DNA from: Chlamydiia bacterium
GTDB lineage: Bacteria > Chlamydiota > Chlamydiia > Chlamydiales > 2-12-FULL-49-11
Assembly (NCBI GenBank): GCA_022601435.1
Contig: JAJACQ010000025.1
Coordinates: 10,563-74,562 of the forward strand
DNA: 64,000 nt
Direction of reading: 5' to 3'
This document shows positions 44,438 through 64,000 of the stretch, piece after piece; position 1 is the first letter of the stretch, and the number at the start of each line of letters is the position of its first letter. Both the position numbers and the translations under genes were made by a program. The notes under the pieces are model-generated. The model had not been told where the DNA came from and did no database searches. It saw nothing but the letters and a program-made list of their open reading frames with translations.

Positions 44438-45859
44438 TTAAAGGTCCGGAAGAGGACTTGAGTTAACAAACCTTGCCTCAACAAAAGGATTAAAAGATAA
44501 ATCAATTTTACAATTTCTCTCTTTTAACTGTTCTAAACTAGAAACTACCCCTTCTATAGAAGTGATTTCATTAAACGAAAGGTCTAAAACTTTTAATTCT
44601 TTAAATTTTGAAATCCAACTTGGTATTTGCCGTAATCCACCACTGGCAAAAGTTAATTCTCTTAAGTTTTTCAACTTTAGAATCTGAATTGGTATTTCCA
44701 CCTCGTCACAGCTAAAAATCTGTAAAACTCTTAATTTTTTAAGACCTCCAATCCAAAGAGGTAAAAATTTGATATTGGTAAGTGTTAGCGATTCTAAATT
44801 CTTAAATTTTAAAATAGACTCTGGTAATAGCCAAGCTTTATCGCCTTTAATTTCTAATCTTGTGATACTGTCATTTGCCTTTTTACTATTTAAATCAGGA
44901 CTAGTTCTTAAAGATTTAAACCTCTCTTTATGCGCTTTTTGATGAGCTTTTTCAAGGTTTTTCCTTCCCTTTTCACAATCGCAAAATATAGGCAACTGAG
45001 ACCACAGCGAAGCAATTGAAACCACAGCATTAAATCTATGAAAATCCGGTAAGTAACGATAAATAATATAATTAAAAAGTTGTAATTTTGATAAACTCAA
45101 ATATAACTCCCCCATTTGTTTAAAAAAAAGACCATGGATTCTCATCGATTGAAATGAAACCGCTATACTATCCATTGCTTCCTTTGACTTCTGTAATAAA
45201 GTAATATCTCCTATTCTCTGAAGTCGAACATTAGATTCTAAGCGATCTATACCAGGTTTTTTCCCTTTAGAAAATAATACTATTTTTCTTACAAGATTTA
45301 ATGAAGGTAGTGGATTACCCACGCAATTAAGCTTTGCCTTTCCTACTAAAGGATCAAATCCAAAAAGGTCAGAGTATCTCTGTATATTATTATCTGCCAC
45401 ATCAAGTTCCTTAAGGTTACTGTTTTCAAAGATCTTCGGAATGGCTGTTATGTTATTATTCCTTAACTTTAAACATCTCAAAGAGGGCATTGCTCCTACT
45501 TCCCGAGGAAGAACTTTAATACTACCATCAGATAAATCTAAGTGCCTAAGGTTTGATAGAAGCTTAATTTGTCGTGGAATAAATGTAACACCAGCTATCT
45601 CTATATGGTTTAAGTTAATCAAACAAAAAACACCCCTGGGAATAACAGAAACTTTATCTGGTAATCCAACCACAAGTTTAGAAATCTGAAAATCTACCAA
45701 AACTTTAATGATTAAACAAAAATTTTGATCTGTCATGTTGGATATATCGATATTATTTTTTTTAAGATCTGTTTGTAGATCCTCATAAGATTTACCAAGC
45801 TCTCGACGTATTGAATCTAAACAATGCTGAACCTCTGTGCAATTTGCGACTTGACTCAC
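44438..45859 (-). CDS. Leucine-rich repeat protein, putative effector
   Basis: LxxLxLxxN repeats (LRHLDLSDG, LRCLKLRNN, LKELDVADN, LKVLDLSFN) in two blocks; AGGAG RBS before GTG. Confidence 0.88.
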   Translation of the reverse strand: MSQVANCTEVQHCLDSIRRELGKSYEDLQTDLKKNNIDISNMTDQNFCLIIKVLVDFQISKLVVGLPDKVSVIPRGVFCLINLNHIEIAGVTFIPRQIKLLSNLRHLDLSDGSIKVLPREVGAMPSLRCLKLRNNNITAIPKIFENSNLKELDVADNNIQRYSDLFGFDPLVGKAKLNCVGNPLPSLNLVRKIVLFSKGKKPGIDRLESNVRLQRIGDITLLQKSKEAMDSIAVSFQSMRIHGLFFKQMGELYLSLSKLQLFNYIIYRYLPDFHRFNAVVSIASLWSQLPIFCDCEKGRKNLEKAHQKAHKERFKSLRTSPDLNSKKANDSITRLEIKGDKAWLLPESILKFKNLESLTLTNIKFLPLWIGGLKKLRVLQIFSCDEVEIPIQILKLKNLRELTFASGGLRQIPSWISKFKELKVLDLSFNEITSIEGVVSSLEQLKERNCKIDLSFNPFVEARFVNSSPLPDL

Positions 45860-56769: not shown

Positions 56770-58392
56770 TTAAGCAAACTTGGAGTTTTCATGCCGGTCT
56801 TTCGTAGAGAGGTCTTCTAATTCCTTCATAAAGGCAATTTCAACATCTAAAGATTTGTCAGCTCCAAATTTTTTTGTGATGCGATGTGATTTGTACTCTT
56901 CTACGATTTTGTTCGCGATAAGCTTTCCTAATTGGACGCCTTCTTGGTCGAATGAGTTGATCCCCCAGATAAAACCCTGAAAAGCGGCGATGTTTTCATA
57001 GTATGAAAGCAATGAGCCCATTGCGTAGGCTGAAAGTGTATTTGTTAAAAGCATGCGGCTCGGGCGATTTCCTGGGAAGTATTGGTTTGGATTTTCTGAA
57101 GATTGTCCGCGTGCTAAAGAGATTGCTTGGGCAAATAAGTTAGAAAGAAGTTTTTCTTGGTTAAGAGTACCTTCAATCTCTTGATCGGTATTGTGTTGTG
57201 GATTGAAAAAGCCGATATATTCTAGAGGAACGGTTACTGTTCCCTGATGAATTGCTTGGAAATATGAGTGTTGACCTTCTGTTCCGCAAGTACCAAAAAT
57301 AATTGGGCAAGTGCTAAAGTCGATAAATTTTCCTGAGTCTTGAGAGACGCGCTTTCCATTTGATTCCATATACAGTTGTTGGATGTGCCCTGCCCACAGA
57401 TCTAATGAACTTGAGTAAGGGACGATACAAAGTGTATTTAAATTTAAAAAATTTCGATTCCAGATACCTAGCAAAGCTCCCATTAAAGGCATGTTCTTCT
57501 TTACATCTTTTTCATGCAAGGCATGAGTATCCATATCGCTTGCCCCTTTCAAAAACTCACTCCATACATCAAATCCGCAGATGAACGCAATAGGCACACC
57601 GCCGACCATAGATGAAACTGAATAGCGCCCACCAATAAAATCCCACATGTAAAAAATCTCACGGTATAAAAGAGGATTATCCATTGGACTGCCCTTACCC
57701 GTCACCATAACAAAATGATCTTTTGGATTAAGACCTTTTTCCAGGAATCTATTTTTTAGCATCTGCTCCTGTGCTTTAATTTCCATTGTTCCACCAGATT
57801 TGGAGATCACGGCTACAATTGTTTTTGATAAATCAATTTCCTCTAAAATAGTCGCGATCTTATCTGGATCAACATTCGAAGCAAAATGAAGTGTTCGGTT
57901 TGTTTTATGAAGCCCCTTTAAAGCCTTTGAAATTGCCAAAGCTCCTAAATATGAGCCTCCTATACCACAAACGACCATATGTTTAAATTCTGATGTTTTT
58001 GAAACAAACTCCTCAAGCTTTTTTAGCTCAACTTGAGATTCCTCATAGGCTTCCTTTGCTTCTTTTGACATGTTACTAGAAATTGACTGGGCTCGAATAG
58101 CAGTATGCCCTACCATCCTTTCCTCTGATTTACAGTTGCTTACAAAGTTCATTACCTTCATATCTTGCATGTCTTTCATCTTTAAAAAGACTCTTGCTTC
58201 CTCAGAAAGCTTTATTAAGTTTTCAAGCACCTCATTATCAATACGCTCCGTTCCATAAAGCATTTTCCATCCACAAATCTCTAATTTCATCTCATGGATA
58301 CGCTCAGAACTTAAGAATCCTTCTTTCGTTAAATCGACAGGATTTTTCGCAAGTTCCTGTAACTTAATAAATGACTTATACTCTCTAAACAT
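56770..58392 (-). CDS. pgi: Glucose-6-phosphate isomerase
   Basis: GIGGSYLG, SKSGGT, IGGRYSVSS, QQLYMESNGK, GTEGQHSYFQ, INSFDQEGVQLGK. Confidence 0.97.
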   Translation of the reverse strand: MFREYKSFIKLQELAKNPVDLTKEGFLSSERIHEMKLEICGWKMLYGTERIDNEVLENLIKLSEEARVFLKMKDMQDMKVMNFVSNCKSEERMVGHTAIRAQSISSNMSKEAKEAYEESQVELKKLEEFVSKTSEFKHMVVCGIGGSYLGALAISKALKGLHKTNRTLHFASNVDPDKIATILEEIDLSKTIVAVISKSGGTMEIKAQEQMLKNRFLEKGLNPKDHFVMVTGKGSPMDNPLLYREIFYMWDFIGGRYSVSSMVGGVPIAFICGFDVWSEFLKGASDMDTHALHEKDVKKNMPLMGALLGIWNRNFLNLNTLCIVPYSSSLDLWAGHIQQLYMESNGKRVSQDSGKFIDFSTCPIIFGTCGTEGQHSYFQAIHQGTVTVPLEYIGFFNPQHNTDQEIEGTLNQEKLLSNLFAQAISLARGQSSENPNQYFPGNRPSRMLLTNTLSAYAMGSLLSYYENIAAFQGFIWGINSFDQEGVQLGKLIANKIVEEYKSHRITKKFGADKSLDVEIAFMKELEDLSTKDRHENSKFA

Positions 58393-60552: not shown

Positions 60553-60568
60553 TCTGGTTCAAATAAGT

Positions 60569-60650
60569 GCCCAGGTGGTGAAATTGGTAGACACGCTAGA
60601 TTTAGGTTCTAGTGCTGTGAGGCGTGGAAGTTCGAGTCTTCTCCTGGGCA
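60569..60650 (+). tRNA. tRNA-Leu (anticodon TAG), CCA not encoded
   Basis: GCCCAGG/CCTGGGC acceptor stem, CTAGA-TTTAGGT-TCTAG anticodon arm, long variable arm, GTTCGAG T-loop. Confidence 0.97.
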
Positions 60651-60666
60651 TAATTTCAAAAAATAT

Positions 60667-61368
60667 ATGAGACCGAAAGATTTAGAGTTTACTATTAAGG
60701 GTTTTGAAACGCGGAAGCCATCTTTTTCCGACGGTGTTTTGACTATCCCCTCATATTTTGAAAAGCATGATAGAAATTTATTTCCGGAATTAAATACAAA
60801 ACTTGAACGCTATCAAACAATTCATGTTGAAATTTGCAGTGGTAACGGCGAATGGATTGCAGAACGTGCTCAAAAGAATCCTGAAATTCTCTATTTTGCG
60901 GTCGAAAAAAAATTCATGCGAATCAGAAAGATCTGGTCAAAGATGAAAAATAAAGGTCTTGAAAATCTAATCATTGTTTCTGGCATGGGAGAAGATTTTT
61001 TAGATCACTACCTTGATAGGGAATCCATTGATGAGGTCTTTGTAAACTTTCCTGATCCTTGGCCTAAAAAACGACACGCTAAACACCGCATTATTAAAGA
61101 GTCATTTTTAAAACCAGTCTATGACGTTTTGAAAGCCGACGGGCAAATCACTACAACTACGGATAGCAAGGAATATAGCGAGGAAATGATTGAAGTATTT
61201 AGCGCTTCTGATCTATTTAATAATCTTTATCCAAATGGCTTTACTCCTCTAGATGAATCTTACGGTGGATCTTACTTTAAAAGATTGTGGAGTGAGATGG
61301 GACGCAAAAATCGATTAATGACTTTTAAAAAAGTGGAAAAAGAATTATGCGCATCGCCGAAAATCTAA
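60667..61368 (+). CDS. trmB: tRNA (guanine-N7)-methyltransferase
   Basis: VEICSGNGEW, FAVE, VNFPDPWPKKRHAKHR, TTD. Confidence 0.93.
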   Translation: MRPKDLEFTIKGFETRKPSFSDGVLTIPSYFEKHDRNLFPELNTKLERYQTIHVEICSGNGEWIAERAQKNPEILYFAVEKKFMRIRKIWSKMKNKGLENLIIVSGMGEDFLDHYLDRESIDEVFVNFPDPWPKKRHAKHRIIKESFLKPVYDVLKADGQITTTTDSKEYSEEMIEVFSASDLFNNLYPNGFTPLDESYGGSYFKRLWSEMGRKNRLMTFKKVEKELCASPKI

Positions 61369-62339
61369 CCGCCTGTTTACAATCTTTAAACTCATACGAT
61401 TGTATTAACTTAAGTCTTGATGGATCACCTAGTAGTAATCTTTCATTTCCTGATTTAGATCATAAGATCGAAGAAATTCTAAACCTTGATAAAAAAATCT
61501 GCCTTGAACTCTTTTTGAATTTGCAAACTGAGTCTTTTTCTTTTTATAATCCTCTTGAATTCTCAATAAGAAAACGCTCTTTAGAAGTCCTACTAGAAAG
61601 GATTTCTAATATTCCTGAAGAAAAAATTTCTCACATAATTCTATATCGAGGTTCTATTGATTTTTCAAATCACATTAAACGTAACGTGCAACTTAATGAA
61701 GAATATCTGCTGTGGAAAAAAGATCTTCTGGAAAATGATATCGATGAAGAACACCTTTTACACATCTACTCATCAAAACTTATATCTGACTTTTTCCACT
61801 CACTTGCCGCCATTTTACCCGATCATATAAAAGCTGCCCTTCTACTTTCCTTGCCTCAAGAACTAGGCGTTGCAAAAACTTCTGAACTTATCTCTGAAGA
61901 AACTTTTTCTCATATCGATATCGGCATAAAAAACCCTCCCTTCTTTCACGAAGGAATCAGCTGGGGTCAAGGATCTGGCTTTCACTCCCTTTCATTTACC
62001 CCACAAAATTCCCTTGCCGAAGATGAAGTTAAAACTGCCGTGATACTCCCCTTCTTTGGAAACTGTAACTACAAACGATTTGAAAAAATCTGCGACAAAC
62101 TAAAAAAACGAAATATCCCCTTCAAAGTGATTGAAGAAAATCTTTTAAACGAAAAGTGGTTCGATATCGACGTGATCATTTTTGATCATGACTCAACCTC
62201 CTTCGACGGAAAACGAATGGTAGATGGCTTTATCGCGGCTGGGGGAAAAGCCTTCGTTTTTGATGACGAAAAAACCTACGAAAGAGAAAACGTCACCTCA
62301 GAATACGGATACTTAAATTTTGAAAGCTTCAATGCATAA
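61347..62339 (+). CDS. Hypothetical protein
   Basis: 330-aa ORF overlapping the trmB end; C-terminal IPFKVIEE..W..ID..GKRMVDGFIAAGG (possibly GATase-like). Confidence 0.7.
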   Translation: MRIAENLTACLQSLNSYDCINLSLDGSPSSNLSFPDLDHKIEEILNLDKKICLELFLNLQTESFSFYNPLEFSIRKRSLEVLLERISNIPEEKISHIILYRGSIDFSNHIKRNVQLNEEYLLWKKDLLENDIDEEHLLHIYSSKLISDFFHSLAAILPDHIKAALLLSLPQELGVAKTSELISEETFSHIDIGIKNPPFFHEGISWGQGSGFHSLSFTPQNSLAEDEVKTAVILPFFGNCNYKRFEKICDKLKKRNIPFKVIEENLLNEKWFDIDVIIFDHDSTSFDGKRMVDGFIAAGGKAFVFDDEKTYERENVTSEYGYLNFESFNA

Positions 62340-62363: not shown

Positions 62364-62393
62364 TTGATGGAAAACCTCTTGATGCCTTATACT
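62364..62393 (+). promoter_or_regulatory. Putative promoter of tRNA-Pro
   Basis: TTGATG-18 bp-TATACT, 17 bp upstream of the tRNA. Confidence 0.55.
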
Positions 62394-62410
62394 GATGCAT
62401 ACTTTTTTTT

Positions 62411-62485
62411 CGGGGTATAGCGCAGCTTGGCTAGCGCGTCTGGTTTGGGACCAGAAGGTCGGGGGTTCGAATCCCTCTACCCCGA
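62411..62485 (+). tRNA. tRNA-Pro (anticodon TGG), CCA not encoded
   Basis: CGGGGTA/TACCCCG acceptor stem, TCTGG-TTTGGGA-CCAGA anticodon arm, GGTTCGAATCC T-arm. Confidence 0.97.
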
Positions 62486-62923
62486 ACTTGTTACAACTAA
62501 CTCCTTTCGCTTCCCAAGAATCTTGGATTCAGAGAATGGGATGAGAACCCCCGAAGGGGTTCGAAAGCGAGCTAAAACATCTTGTTACACCGAATCTTCG
62601 AGCTTACCCAACAATGCGAAGCATTGTGCAGGAAATCCCTCTACCCCGAACTTGTTACTGTAATAACATTATACTACCAAAGCTTCTTGGACTCAGAGAA
62701 TGGGATGAGAACCCCCGAAGGGGTTCGAAAGCGAGCTAAAACATCTTGTTACACCGAATCTTCGAGCTTACCCAGCAATGCGAAGCATTGTGCAGGAAAA
62801 GCGAGCTAAAACATCTTGTTACACCGAATTCTTCGAGCTTACCCAGCAATGCGAAGCATTGTGCAGGAAATCCCTCTACCCCGAACTTGTTACAACTAAC
62901 CCTTTTGTCTCCCAAGAATCTTG
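62470..62923 (+). repeat. tRNA-linked nested repeat array (164-bp unit, 235-bp unit, partial third unit)
   Basis: AATCCCTCTACCCCGAACTTGTTAC at 62470, 62634 and 62869; 70-bp inner module at 62565, 62729 and 62799. Confidence 0.95.
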
Positions 62924-62969
62924 AACCCTAAGTAAGTTCTGAAAATAATTTTCTAATAAATTTTAAAAC

Positions 62970-64000
62970 CTATTTTTCAAGAGGAGGTTTTTCGTGGAGG
63001 GCGAAGGTTATTAAGATGGCGACTACCATGGAAAAGCAGCCCATCATTAAATAGCCTTGGGCGGCGGTGATGTCTATTACTTCGCCAAATAAGAAGAGCG
63101 TTGCAGCTCCGCACAAAACGGCGACGAAGCTTAGAAAAGTTCCGGCAGAAACAAAGCTTCCGCGGCTTTTTTCAGGACTTATAAATTGCACGTAGGCGTC
63201 TAATGGAACAATGTAGAGACCGCCGTGCATGCCGATAGAAAAGAACAAAAAGCATGATAGAATCAGGTTGTATTGGCAAACATATAGCAGGATATAAGAA
63301 GTAGCCGTTCCGTATCCTCCCCAAAGTGACAACCAAAGTTTTACGCTATCGGATGCAATAATGCTTACTAAAAAGGATCCAACGCCTAAGCCCAGGGCGG
63401 CGGCAAGGTACACGTATCCTGTTTGAATATCTGTTATACCTAAAGATTCGATGCCAAATGGAATTAAGTTTAATTGTGTGAATGATGCAGTATATAAAAA
63501 AAAGGCCGATGAAAAAAGAGCCAAGTTCAAATGTTTATATTCTCTTGCTGCTTTCACAGAGCGAAAAATTTGTGTAAGAAAAAAGAAGTTAACTTTTTTA
63601 TCAGGATCTTTAACGGGAGTTTTTTCTATCATATAAGAGGTAACTACTGCGATCACAGATATAAGAATGCAAAATATCACTATGAGCGGAAAGTTTCTTT
63701 TAGTCATTTCAGACAAAAAAGAAGCAAGAAACGTTCCTAGCAAAATAGCTAGGTAGGTAAACAGGGTCATATGACCATTTGCACGGGTAATGCGCGATTC
63801 AGGTTCGATTTCTGGAATGATCGAGTATTTCATAGGGCTAAAAAAAGCCGATTGTAATGCAATAAGAAATAGAGCAAAATAAGAAGTTACTTCATGGTTA
63901 TAGTAGATTGCAAAATAGGCAAGTATCATGAAGATGAGTTCAGCCCAGGATGTCCAGAGAATGATAGTCCGTTTACTCATCCTATCGCCCATTTGACCTG
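62970..64000 (-). CDS. MFS transporter, LplT/Aas lysophospholipid-transporter-like (5'-truncated by window)
   Basis: AGQMGDRMSKR, LQSAFFSPMKYSIIPE, ANG, GGLYIVPLDAYVQ; frame open to window end. Confidence 0.85.
   Translation of the reverse strand, partial: GQMGDRMSKRTIILWTSWAELIFMILAYFAIYYNHEVTSYFALFLIALQSAFFSPMKYSIIPEIEPESRITRANGHMTLFTYLAILLGTFLASFLSEMTKRNFPLIVIFCILISVIAVVTSYMIEKTPVKDPDKKVNFFFLTQIFRSVKAAREYKHLNLALFSSAFFLYTASFTQLNLIPFGIESLGITDIQTGYVYLAAALGLGVGSFLVSIIASDSVKLWLSLWGGYGTATSYILLYVCQYNLILSCFLFFSIGMHGGLYIVPLDAYVQFISPEKSRGSFVSAGTFLSFVAVLCGAATLFLFGEVIDITAAQGYLMMGCFSMVVAILITFALHEKPPLEK

Follow-up and report, generated by a model that had tools for sequence, protein, structure and literature searches.

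The locus considered here lies within the window (the whole stretch of 64,000 nucleotides that was analyzed) and starts with a tRNA-Pro(UGG) gene on the plus strand, at positions 62410-62485. The limits given by ARAGORN were 62410-62487, while the Rfam tRNA model matched 62411-62485 with 67.3 bits; CCA is absent from the gene. On its 5′ side, on the same strand, there is a promoter-like site (62364-62393) composed of TTGATG, 18 nt and TATACT, with 9/12 positions matched, which has to be considered weak because the count of such sites in this region was no higher than in shuffled sequences. No terminator-like site was found on the plus strand between tRNA-Pro and the end of the array described below. 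Six ORFs were scanned between positions 56770 and 63992, corresponding to phosphoglucose isomerase, an ORF of no family, a DUF2608 protein, TrmB, a 330-aa ORF also of no family, and an MFS transporter. The MFS gene (62970-63992, minus strand) is convergent with the array and lies in the direction of its unique flank. None of the six ORFs was an integrase, transposase or cas gene, in agreement with an initial annotation of this DNA, made from the sequence alone, which had seen no such gene adjacent to the array.

The array starts inside the tRNA-Pro gene and continues directly downstream on the plus strand. As assembled, it contains two full units and a third head with a partial spacer, the exact count being uncertain with a short-read assembly. 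The head is the 25-nt sequence AATCCCTCTACCCCGAACTTGTTAC, which comprises the 16 nt of the tRNA from A58 of the T loop to the discriminator, plus 9 nt of flank. It has exactly three exact occurrences, those noticed in the initial annotation: head 1 at 62470-62494, head 2 at 62634-62658 and head 3 at 62869-62893. Head 1 is followed by the spacer of unit 1 (62495-62537), which includes a 26-mer previously described as variable (62495-62520) and the mini-stem CCAAG/CTTGG (62514-62526), and then by the body of unit 1 (62538-62633). In this body, GGGAT, the 5′ strand of helix P1, is located at 62538-62542, the P2 hairpin at 62545-62562, and the last hairpin, CAATGC-GAA-GCATTG, at 62612-62626; a 49-nt middle segment runs between the P2 hairpin and the last one. 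The minimum-energy fold of unit 1 contains P1 (GGGAU/AUCCC plus AGA/UCU), P2 (7 bp) and the last hairpin, all of them formed, P1 of the window units amounting merely to 5 bp plus 3 bp.

Concerning unit 2, its spacer occupies 62659-62701 and its body 62702-62868. The 26-mer behind head 2 (62659-62684) diverges from the one behind head 1, with only 11/26 positions in common, and has no second copy in the genome; neither of the two 26-mers gave, against the genome they belong to, anything above 13-nt chance matches. By contrast, the 113 nt that come after the 26-mers (62521-62633 versus 62685-62797) display two differences only, at 62528 and 62611, so that the strong divergence of one segment amid nearly identical sequence was correctly described in the initial annotation. 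The unit length of 164 bp was not correct for unit 2, which measures 235 bp: a 70-nt internal tandem duplication had been overlooked, with positions 62729-62798 repeated at 62799-62868 and one extra T in the second copy. The partial spacer 3 (62894-62924, plus strand), with 89% identity to spacer 1 over 38 nt, remains similar to it along some 31 nt, one indel included, before giving way to the unique flank, and unit 3 can thus be said to resemble unit 1 as had been noted.

The array of tRNA-Pro is accompanied by others in the same genome. The 11-mer GGGATGAGAAC has six occurrences in the 1.6-Mb genome, and all six are within arrays behind tRNA genes: two at tRNA-Pro, two behind tRNA-Ser(UGA) in contig C33, where the period is 136 bp, and two behind tRNA-Ser(GGA) in contig C25, where it is 107 bp. 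Since every genomic copy sits in a tRNA-linked array, a chance origin is excluded. The Pro array and both Ser arrays have in common GGGATGAGAAC, a hairpin, GTTCG and a junction in the T loop. In each array, the end of the unit is the 3′ end of its own upstream tRNA, beginning at AATCCC, and the junction falls always within the T loop (TTCG/AATCCC in the tRNA and ..A/AATCCC in the units, with the slash marking the junction). The hairpin located immediately before the junction shows compensating changes between the arrays of this genome. A one-off duplication by slippage, which had been mentioned as an alternative, does not agree with the existence of like arrays behind tRNA-Ser(UGA) and tRNA-Ser(GGA), and in other genomes of the order. 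Array fragments occur as well. At the end of contig C38, 5′ of a Ser gene, there is a pseudo-tRNA-Ser whose T loop, at GTTCG, passes into the 3′ portion of a body, and at the end of contig C8, which overlaps the start of C33, also 5′ of a Ser gene, there is a 3′ fragment of a Pro-type body followed by AATCCC. Assembly breaks at array repeats account for four of these contig ends.

The search for relatives within the order gave different results depending on the query. BLAST of the Pro unit body against 60 relatives yielded chance-level matches only, all with E above 0.01. The pattern GGGATGAGAACN{3,12}GTTCG had matches in 22/400 other genomes of the order, compared to 3 for a reversed control pattern. 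Sixteen of the 22 pattern loci were located directly behind tRNA-Ser (GGA, UGA, CGA or GCU), and consisted mostly of tandem units of 113-177 bp that close with the 3′ end of the same tRNA; the remainder were one array at a contig start and five apparent chance matches without tRNA. A truncated last unit is common among the arrays of the order. The Rfam family RtT (RF00391), whose gathering cut-off is 45 bits, matched 8/9 loci behind tRNA-Ser in the order at E≤1, the best of them with 46.8 bits and the rest with 25.7-41.3 bits.

A covariance model, R1, was built from an alignment, A1, that combined 16 units of the order, taken from genomes other than this one, with three E. coli units. In the window, R1 matched unit 1 over 62518-62651 with 34.2 bits (E of 7e-9 in 67 kb, and of 1.7e-7 genome-wide), a match that is partly circular because the training units were found via a pattern taken from this genome. 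The 5′ motif of R1 matches by construction, while the E. coli training units were found independently of that pattern. Unit 2, with its internal duplication, scored 17.3 bits over 62682-62828, and the Ser units of the same genome scored 36.1-37.2 bits. Within the order, R1 matches were patchy (20/149 good genomes), and in the window's own family they were obtained in 4/21 genomes, with three loci being real units behind tRNA-Ser. The orthologous locus of a genome of the same genus (G003) has kept the order of the 330-aa ORF homologue, tRNA-Pro and an MFS-like gene, and contains no repeated head or array, just an inverted copy of the T arm 50 nt downstream; in another genome (G002), tRNA-Pro is inverted. 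From the lack of an array at the orthologous locus of G003, it follows that the array of the window is young, or that it was lost in close kin. Together with the patchiness, this would fit a dispensable element too.

The features of the array were compared with those of the tRNA-linked repeats (TLRs) of E. coli. According to PMC8144298 (2021), TLRs were first described in 1978 (Egan & Landy 1978 and Rudd 1999, as cited there), E. coli K-12 contains 22 TLR copies at ten loci, and each TLR reproduces 18-19 bp of the 3′ terminus of the tRNA or rRNA that precedes it. In the same source, TLRs are regarded as being without known function, save the 5S rRNA-linked RrA, RrB and RrF, which bind Hfq and CsrA, and an early functional claim for rtT is said to have been withdrawn; the mode of action of rttR is likewise called unknown in a 2024 preprint. 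The window array has the anatomy of TLRs: it begins inside the tRNA and follows it on the same strand, the tRNA's 3′ end (16 nt without CCA, plus 9 nt of flank) is repeated exactly in the three heads, and the two full units and partial third are within the one to five repeats per locus of TLRs. It also belongs to the TLR family by its core, as it contains GGAUGAGAA, GGUUCGA, AAUCC and the helices P1 and P2, which correspond to invariant columns of A1, and unit 1 could be aligned along the entire length of R1. The RtT model itself gave no match to the window units at E≤10, so they are below the 45-bit cut-off, and the Ser units of the same genome reached just 23.6 and 22.4 bits. The two inner hairpins, P4 (6 bp) and P5 (CCC-loop-GGG), had no aligned counterpart in the window units or in this genome's Ser units; across the family, P4 is present in 59/103 rows and absent in 44/103. 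Taking all this together, we consider it probable that the array is a set of TLRs, of the kind known from E. coli tyrT/rtT and from Rfam RtT, with units that are read through and cut at the heads.

The secondary structure of the family was analyzed on two alignments. On A1, RNAalifold predicted P1, P2, P4 and P5, with compensatory changes in 11/20 pairs. The larger alignment, A2, contained 102 distinct units aligned to R1; being fitted to the model, it leans towards structure, and this should be borne in mind when reading that 95.6% of its cells paired, versus 81.4% in shuffles, and that 220 cells showed double changes, versus 64.6 in shuffles. When the partner was slid by 1-3 columns, pairing in A2 fell to 24-65%. 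The cells with G-U or U-G were 49 and those with A-C or C-A were 5. Such an excess of G-U over A-C means that selection for the structure acts on the tRNA-sense strand, which is what a transcript would be expected to show. Within the covarying structure, the 5′ arm (GGGAU-GA-GAACC) corresponds to the T arm (GGUUC-GA-AUCC) in antisense, except for two G-A mismatches at the centre. For some members, this complementarity extends through the 3′ strand of the acceptor stem, and even into the flank. The 5′ arm was seen to match the cognate T loop in one case (G020, with a TTCAAAT T loop and a AGATTTGAA arm). Beyond the T stem, the effect was modest, as, in the mean over 79 loci, 7.4/12 positions paired, versus 6.4 for mismatched tRNA-unit pairs.

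Some resemblances to other kinds of elements were considered and discarded. A hammerhead ribozyme was suggested by the succession GAUGAG, helix, CGAAA, but the C3/U4 positions are G-G and GAAA is not kept in other members; the Rfam search of the window and of the loci of relatives gave no ribozyme match, and the likeness is probably only that of a tandem G-A beside a helix. The last hairpin, with its AGC start and the GAAA loop of the Ser units, recalls domain V of group II introns, from which it was set apart by being too short and having no Rfam match. An IS200/IS605-type insertion after TTAC, suggested by the six copies of CTTGTTAC present within the tRNA-Pro array, was rejected because this motif is peculiar to the locus and is missing from the Ser arrays.

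Concerning the distribution of the family across bacteria, a scan of one genome per species with GGGATGAGAACCN{2,12}GGTTCGA gave at least 121 stretches. The family is present in many phyla, as among the matches listed there were Bacteroidota, Verrucomicrobiota, Gamma- and Betaproteobacteria, Chlorobi, Patescibacteria, Planctomycetota and others. Eighty loci were listed out of the at least 121, and R1 matched 74 of those 80 at E≤0.01. A tRNA was directly upstream on the same strand in 59/80 of the listed loci: Ser in 31, Glu in 8, Gln in 6, Pro and Gly in 3 each, Lys and Arg in 2 each, His, Val and Met in 1 each, plus 1 without assigned type. The last 13 nt of the tRNA recurred downstream in 38 of these 59 loci, always among the 80 listed. 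None of 20 loci chosen for diversity reached the Rfam cut-off with RtT, the best scoring 42.1 bits, and so most of this spread would stay unannotated. A search of the literature outside subscription journals encountered the term tRNA-linked repeat(s) in just two papers, and no account of a wide TLR distribution.

From these data, a broader view can be put forward, although only tentatively and as something that is rather doubtful at present: rather than a peculiarity of enterobacteria, TLRs could be ancient, pan-bacterial foldback RNAs, in which an antisense copy of the 3′ third of the tRNA pairs with a sense copy interrupted by a hairpin module, co-evolving with the upstream tRNA (Ser, Glu, Gln, Pro, Tyr, Lys, Gly and others) and kept even in small genomes. 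If this were true, they would have a conserved job in the biology of the tRNA 3′ end or T arm, for instance as a cis-acting processing or decoy module for maturation enzymes, and they could move between tRNA genes via recombination at the universal T-arm sequence.

Regarding the way in which the window array could work, each unit is formed by a loosely constrained spacer, a body (antisense T arm, short turn, the sense T-arm half GGUUCGA, and hairpins) and a head. In the transcript, the antisense and sense pieces of the T arm would pair as P1 and P2, with the tandem G-A between them, and this pairing would close a multi-hairpin RNA. The units would be read through from the tRNA-Pro promoter, and the machinery of tRNA 3′-end formation might cut at each head, as reported for E. 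coli TLRs, to give RNAs close to 165 nt long. The number of units would change through unequal recombination, or through slippage, from one head to another, and gene conversion would hold head and body alike, with the spacer drifting or being swapped. It seems reasonable to interpret the mosaic, in which identical and divergent segments abut sharply, as a result of such presumed gene conversion; the same mosaic pattern was observed at another locus, L032. The co-transcription of the units with the tRNA, giving small structured RNAs, as suggested in the initial annotation, fits with the covarying helices, the G-U excess of the sense strand and the lack of a terminator-like site before the end of the array. 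Six RNA runs, each with 0.04-0.07 of the sampled words of the stretch and none with the array, are silent on expression.

The interpretation of the array as TLRs has to be weighed against other explanations, beginning with the reality of the array itself. The window comes from a short-read assembly (41 contigs, 1.6 Mb, 88% complete), and it could be thought that, with short reads coming from a mixed population, an array was wrongly assembled where there was a single unit, or none. Several arrays of the genome being at contig ends (C25/C38 and C8/C33) would agree with this, as would the data from two of three DNA runs of one study, X1-X3, that contain the stretch. In X1, the unitig depths (46.8-101.9 versus 28.3 in the flanks) disagree with the assembled copy numbers, while in X2, one contig connects 62727 to 62798, so that one copy of the 70-nt piece is missing, which may be due to a polymorphism or to the collapse of a de Bruijn cycle. 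However, separate unitigs of X1-X3, runs that are not independent as they may include the source sample, spanned with no differing letters the main junctions, i.e., tRNA-spacer 1, body-head 2-spacer 2, the duplication junction and head 3-flank, and similar arrays occur in complete genomes, E. coli K-12 included. An artefact of this sort seems highly improbable; the array is real, and it is the exact number of units that is uncertain. Also to be considered is a CRISPR-like or guide-RNA array, where the segment behind each head would be an acquired spacer of fixed length. The two units do have unlike segments of equal length, 26 nt, between conserved parts, and CRISPR-DR17 weakly matched the P2 hairpin on its minus strand (with 23.5 bits, the cut-off being 42). 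Nevertheless, the fixed-length variable segment of the initial annotation turned out to be a portion of the spacer between head and body, the least constrained part of the unit family-wide. The distance from tRNA to motif varies from 11 to 190 nt across the family, and the spacer is often identical between units and often contains a terminator, so a guide-like cassette does not fit. Besides, there are just two full units, the third spacer being native flank, the six scanned ORFs are devoid of cas genes, and the 26-mers are without match elsewhere in the genome, as is the array in phage and plasmid collections. A CRISPR-like nature is hence barely conceivable.

The initial annotation had favored the growth of the array by repeated site-specific integration, i.e., a non-autonomous element inserted again and again by a tyrosine integrase at the tRNA's 3′ end. 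The heads would then be att cores, and each unit a minimal attP. Sites of the T-loop att class start in the T loop and run through the tRNA 3′ end, and this is the layout of the identity block of the array. The spacer of unit 2 is unlike that of unit 1, as though it had arrived separately, and the pseudo-tRNAs with a body fused at GTTCG upstream of tRNA-Ser genes indicate that recombination at the T arm occurs. Against integration, the genome has only two tyrosine-recombinase (PF00589) genes, in contigs C37 and C13, neither of them near any array; the units, of 107-164 bp, have no cargo; phage and plasmid collections gave no match, as stated above, and among 2.9 million viral contigs the motif was present in two stretches, one of them matched by R1. 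Moreover, the heads follow the upstream tRNA (Ser, Glu, Gln, Pro, Tyr and others), which is impossible for one fixed attP, and both the covariation and the G-U excess indicate selection on a transcript. We regard repeated integration as very unlikely. Somewhat less remote, but unlikely too, is the idea that the repeats are debris at the DNA level, i.e., that illegitimate or unequal recombination at the T-arm DNA, which is nearly palindromic, produced them as neutral by-products, the array being a recent local duplication without RNA function. The patchy occurrence in the order and the orthologous locus of G003 without array would be in agreement with this, and the same can be said of the truncated units that terminate many arrays, the internal 70-nt duplication and doubtful copy number, and the loss of P4 and P5 from the window units. 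What argues against debris is that the core sequence and helices are shared by E. coli and phyla distant from it, compensatory changes included, that the strand asymmetry (49 G-U versus 5 A-C cells) is strong, and that the 5′ arm tracks the cognate T arm, as in G020.

Returning to the TLR interpretation, the array by itself is a somewhat reduced example of a kind that, although known, lacks an explanation. What this case adds is that TLRs are seen behind tRNA-Pro and tRNA-Ser in a genome that is small and distant from those of enterobacteria, and the wider point to pursue is that of a foldback element, pan-bacterial and with covariation, which is linked to the 3′ ends of tRNAs. The covarying helices and the selection on the sense strand make it worthwhile to look in E. 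coli for a function exerted by the RNA. For annotation, such arrays account for contig breaks beside tRNA genes and for apparent pseudo-tRNAs.

Among known systems, the closest comparison is with the rtT repeats of E. coli, which the initial annotation had proposed as an analogue, an idea supported by the same order of motifs, the same boundary in the T loop and the RtT matches found in relatives of the order. In E. coli K-12, RF00391 gave 16 matches, 13 of them above the cut-off. Four are in the tyrT-tyrV locus, with 132.9-137.5 bits, one is behind proK tRNA-Pro(CGG) and three are behind serX tRNA-Ser(GGA). The order of elements in the rtT unit is GGATGAGAA, hairpin, GGTTCGA, hairpins, CCCGAAGGGCGA, hairpin, GAGTAATCC and the 3′ end of tRNA-Tyr. 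Like the window array, rtT has tandem units directly behind the tRNA gene on the same strand, with a partial last copy; the boundary is in both cases at A58 of the T loop (in E. coli 19 nt, CCA included; in the window 16 nt, as CCA is lacking), and the body starts in both with GGATGAGAA, a hairpin and GGTTCGA, and finishes with a hairpin and AATCC. The differences are that the window units are below the Rfam threshold, without P4 and P5 and with another middle segment of 49 nt, that the unit is of 164 bp in the window and 178 bp in E. coli, and that the host is not an enterobacterium, being represented by a metagenome-assembled genome of 1.6 Mb.

The proK and serX TLRs, which R1 matched with 57.2 bits and 38.8-48.9 bits, respectively, share with the arrays of the window's genome the tRNA families (Pro and Ser) and the order head, spacer, body, head. 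They differ in that their bodies carry the full set of hairpins and their spacers contain an intrinsic terminator, absent from the window spacers. The RrA, RrB and RrF elements of the E. coli rrn operons belong to the same TLR class, and, as described in PMC8144298, are read through and processed, and contain a 3′ repeat of the upstream stable RNA. They are unlike the window array in being linked to 5S rRNA and in binding Hfq and CsrA through GGA motifs; for the 19 tRNA-linked TLRs, the same source gives a CsrA-binding score below 0.01. Finally, the attL/attR remnants of tRNA-targeting elements are similar to the array as they also contain a direct repeat of the 3′ part of the tRNA from the T loop. 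The window array differs from such remnants in lacking integrase and cargo, and in that its units are structured, covarying and tied to many tRNAs.

Just upstream of tRNA-Pro, the window carries a 330-aa ORF on the forward strand (61347-62339) that belongs to no Pfam or NCBIfam family. A 27-nt motif occurs within this ORF in copies at 61610, 61739 and 61889, so the ORF may hold an internal repeat some 130-150 nt long. Further upstream, at 60568-61368 and 1 kb from the array of tRNA-linked repeats (TLRs), tRNA-Leu(UAG) is followed directly by trmB, the gene of the tRNA m7G46 methyltransferase, so that a tRNA-modification gene lies between two tRNA genes.

The orthologous tRNA-Pro locus of a genome of the same genus, G003 (L194, reverse strand 1149-1300), displays a perfect inverted T-arm copy, GGGATTCGAACCCCCGA, 50 nt after tRNA-Pro, but has no repeated head. 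In G002 (L195), tRNA-Pro and the genes around it stand in opposite orientations compared with the other loci.

Within the window's own genome, fragments of the array type were also observed on the 5' side of tRNA-Ser genes. Upstream of tRNA-Ser(GGA) there is a second promoter with the 5' part of a tRNA-Ser (locus L059, G000:C38:11000-11710, about 340-600); at GTTCG, the T loop of this pseudo-tRNA passes into 49 nt from the 3' part of a body plus AATCCCAC, which directly abuts the real promoter and tRNA-Ser(GGA). The arrangement carries on into L057, at the end of contig C25, and similar pseudo-tRNAs are found upstream of tRNA-Ser at L033 and L036, in other genomes. At L060 (G000:C8:18800-19270, about 320-360), which overlaps the start of contig C33, the 3' hairpin of a Pro-type body, together with AATCCCGA, stands immediately past a stop codon, and tRNA-Ser(UGA) follows about 110 nt downstream; compared to the window hairpin, the stem of this hairpin shows compensating changes.

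Two further observations concern the same genome. In its 1.6 Mb, ARAGORN called two tmRNA genes (C1:2010-2391 and C7:1059-1440) whose tags differ; one of them could be a wrong prediction, a copy from a mobile element or a contaminant. On the reverse strand of the window, a 473-aa leucine-rich-repeat protein (44438-45859) has a sub-threshold likeness to XopL/XopAC-type LRR effectors (76.6 bits versus a cut-off of 500).

A 6.3-kb contig filed as viral (L188, IMGVR_UViG_3300025942_000043) gave a unit-like match (39.6 bits) to R1, our covariance model of TLR units, at 1502-1591; no tRNA lies closer to it than 1.5 kb. Among known RNA families, Rfam sX4 (RF02223) gave sub-threshold matches at the TLR loci L036, L093, L120, L107, L097, L095 and others, reaching up to 44.4 bits versus a cut-off of 70. 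These matches cover the tRNA together with the beginning of the unit next to it, and sX4 itself could represent a transcript of a tRNA plus a TLR.
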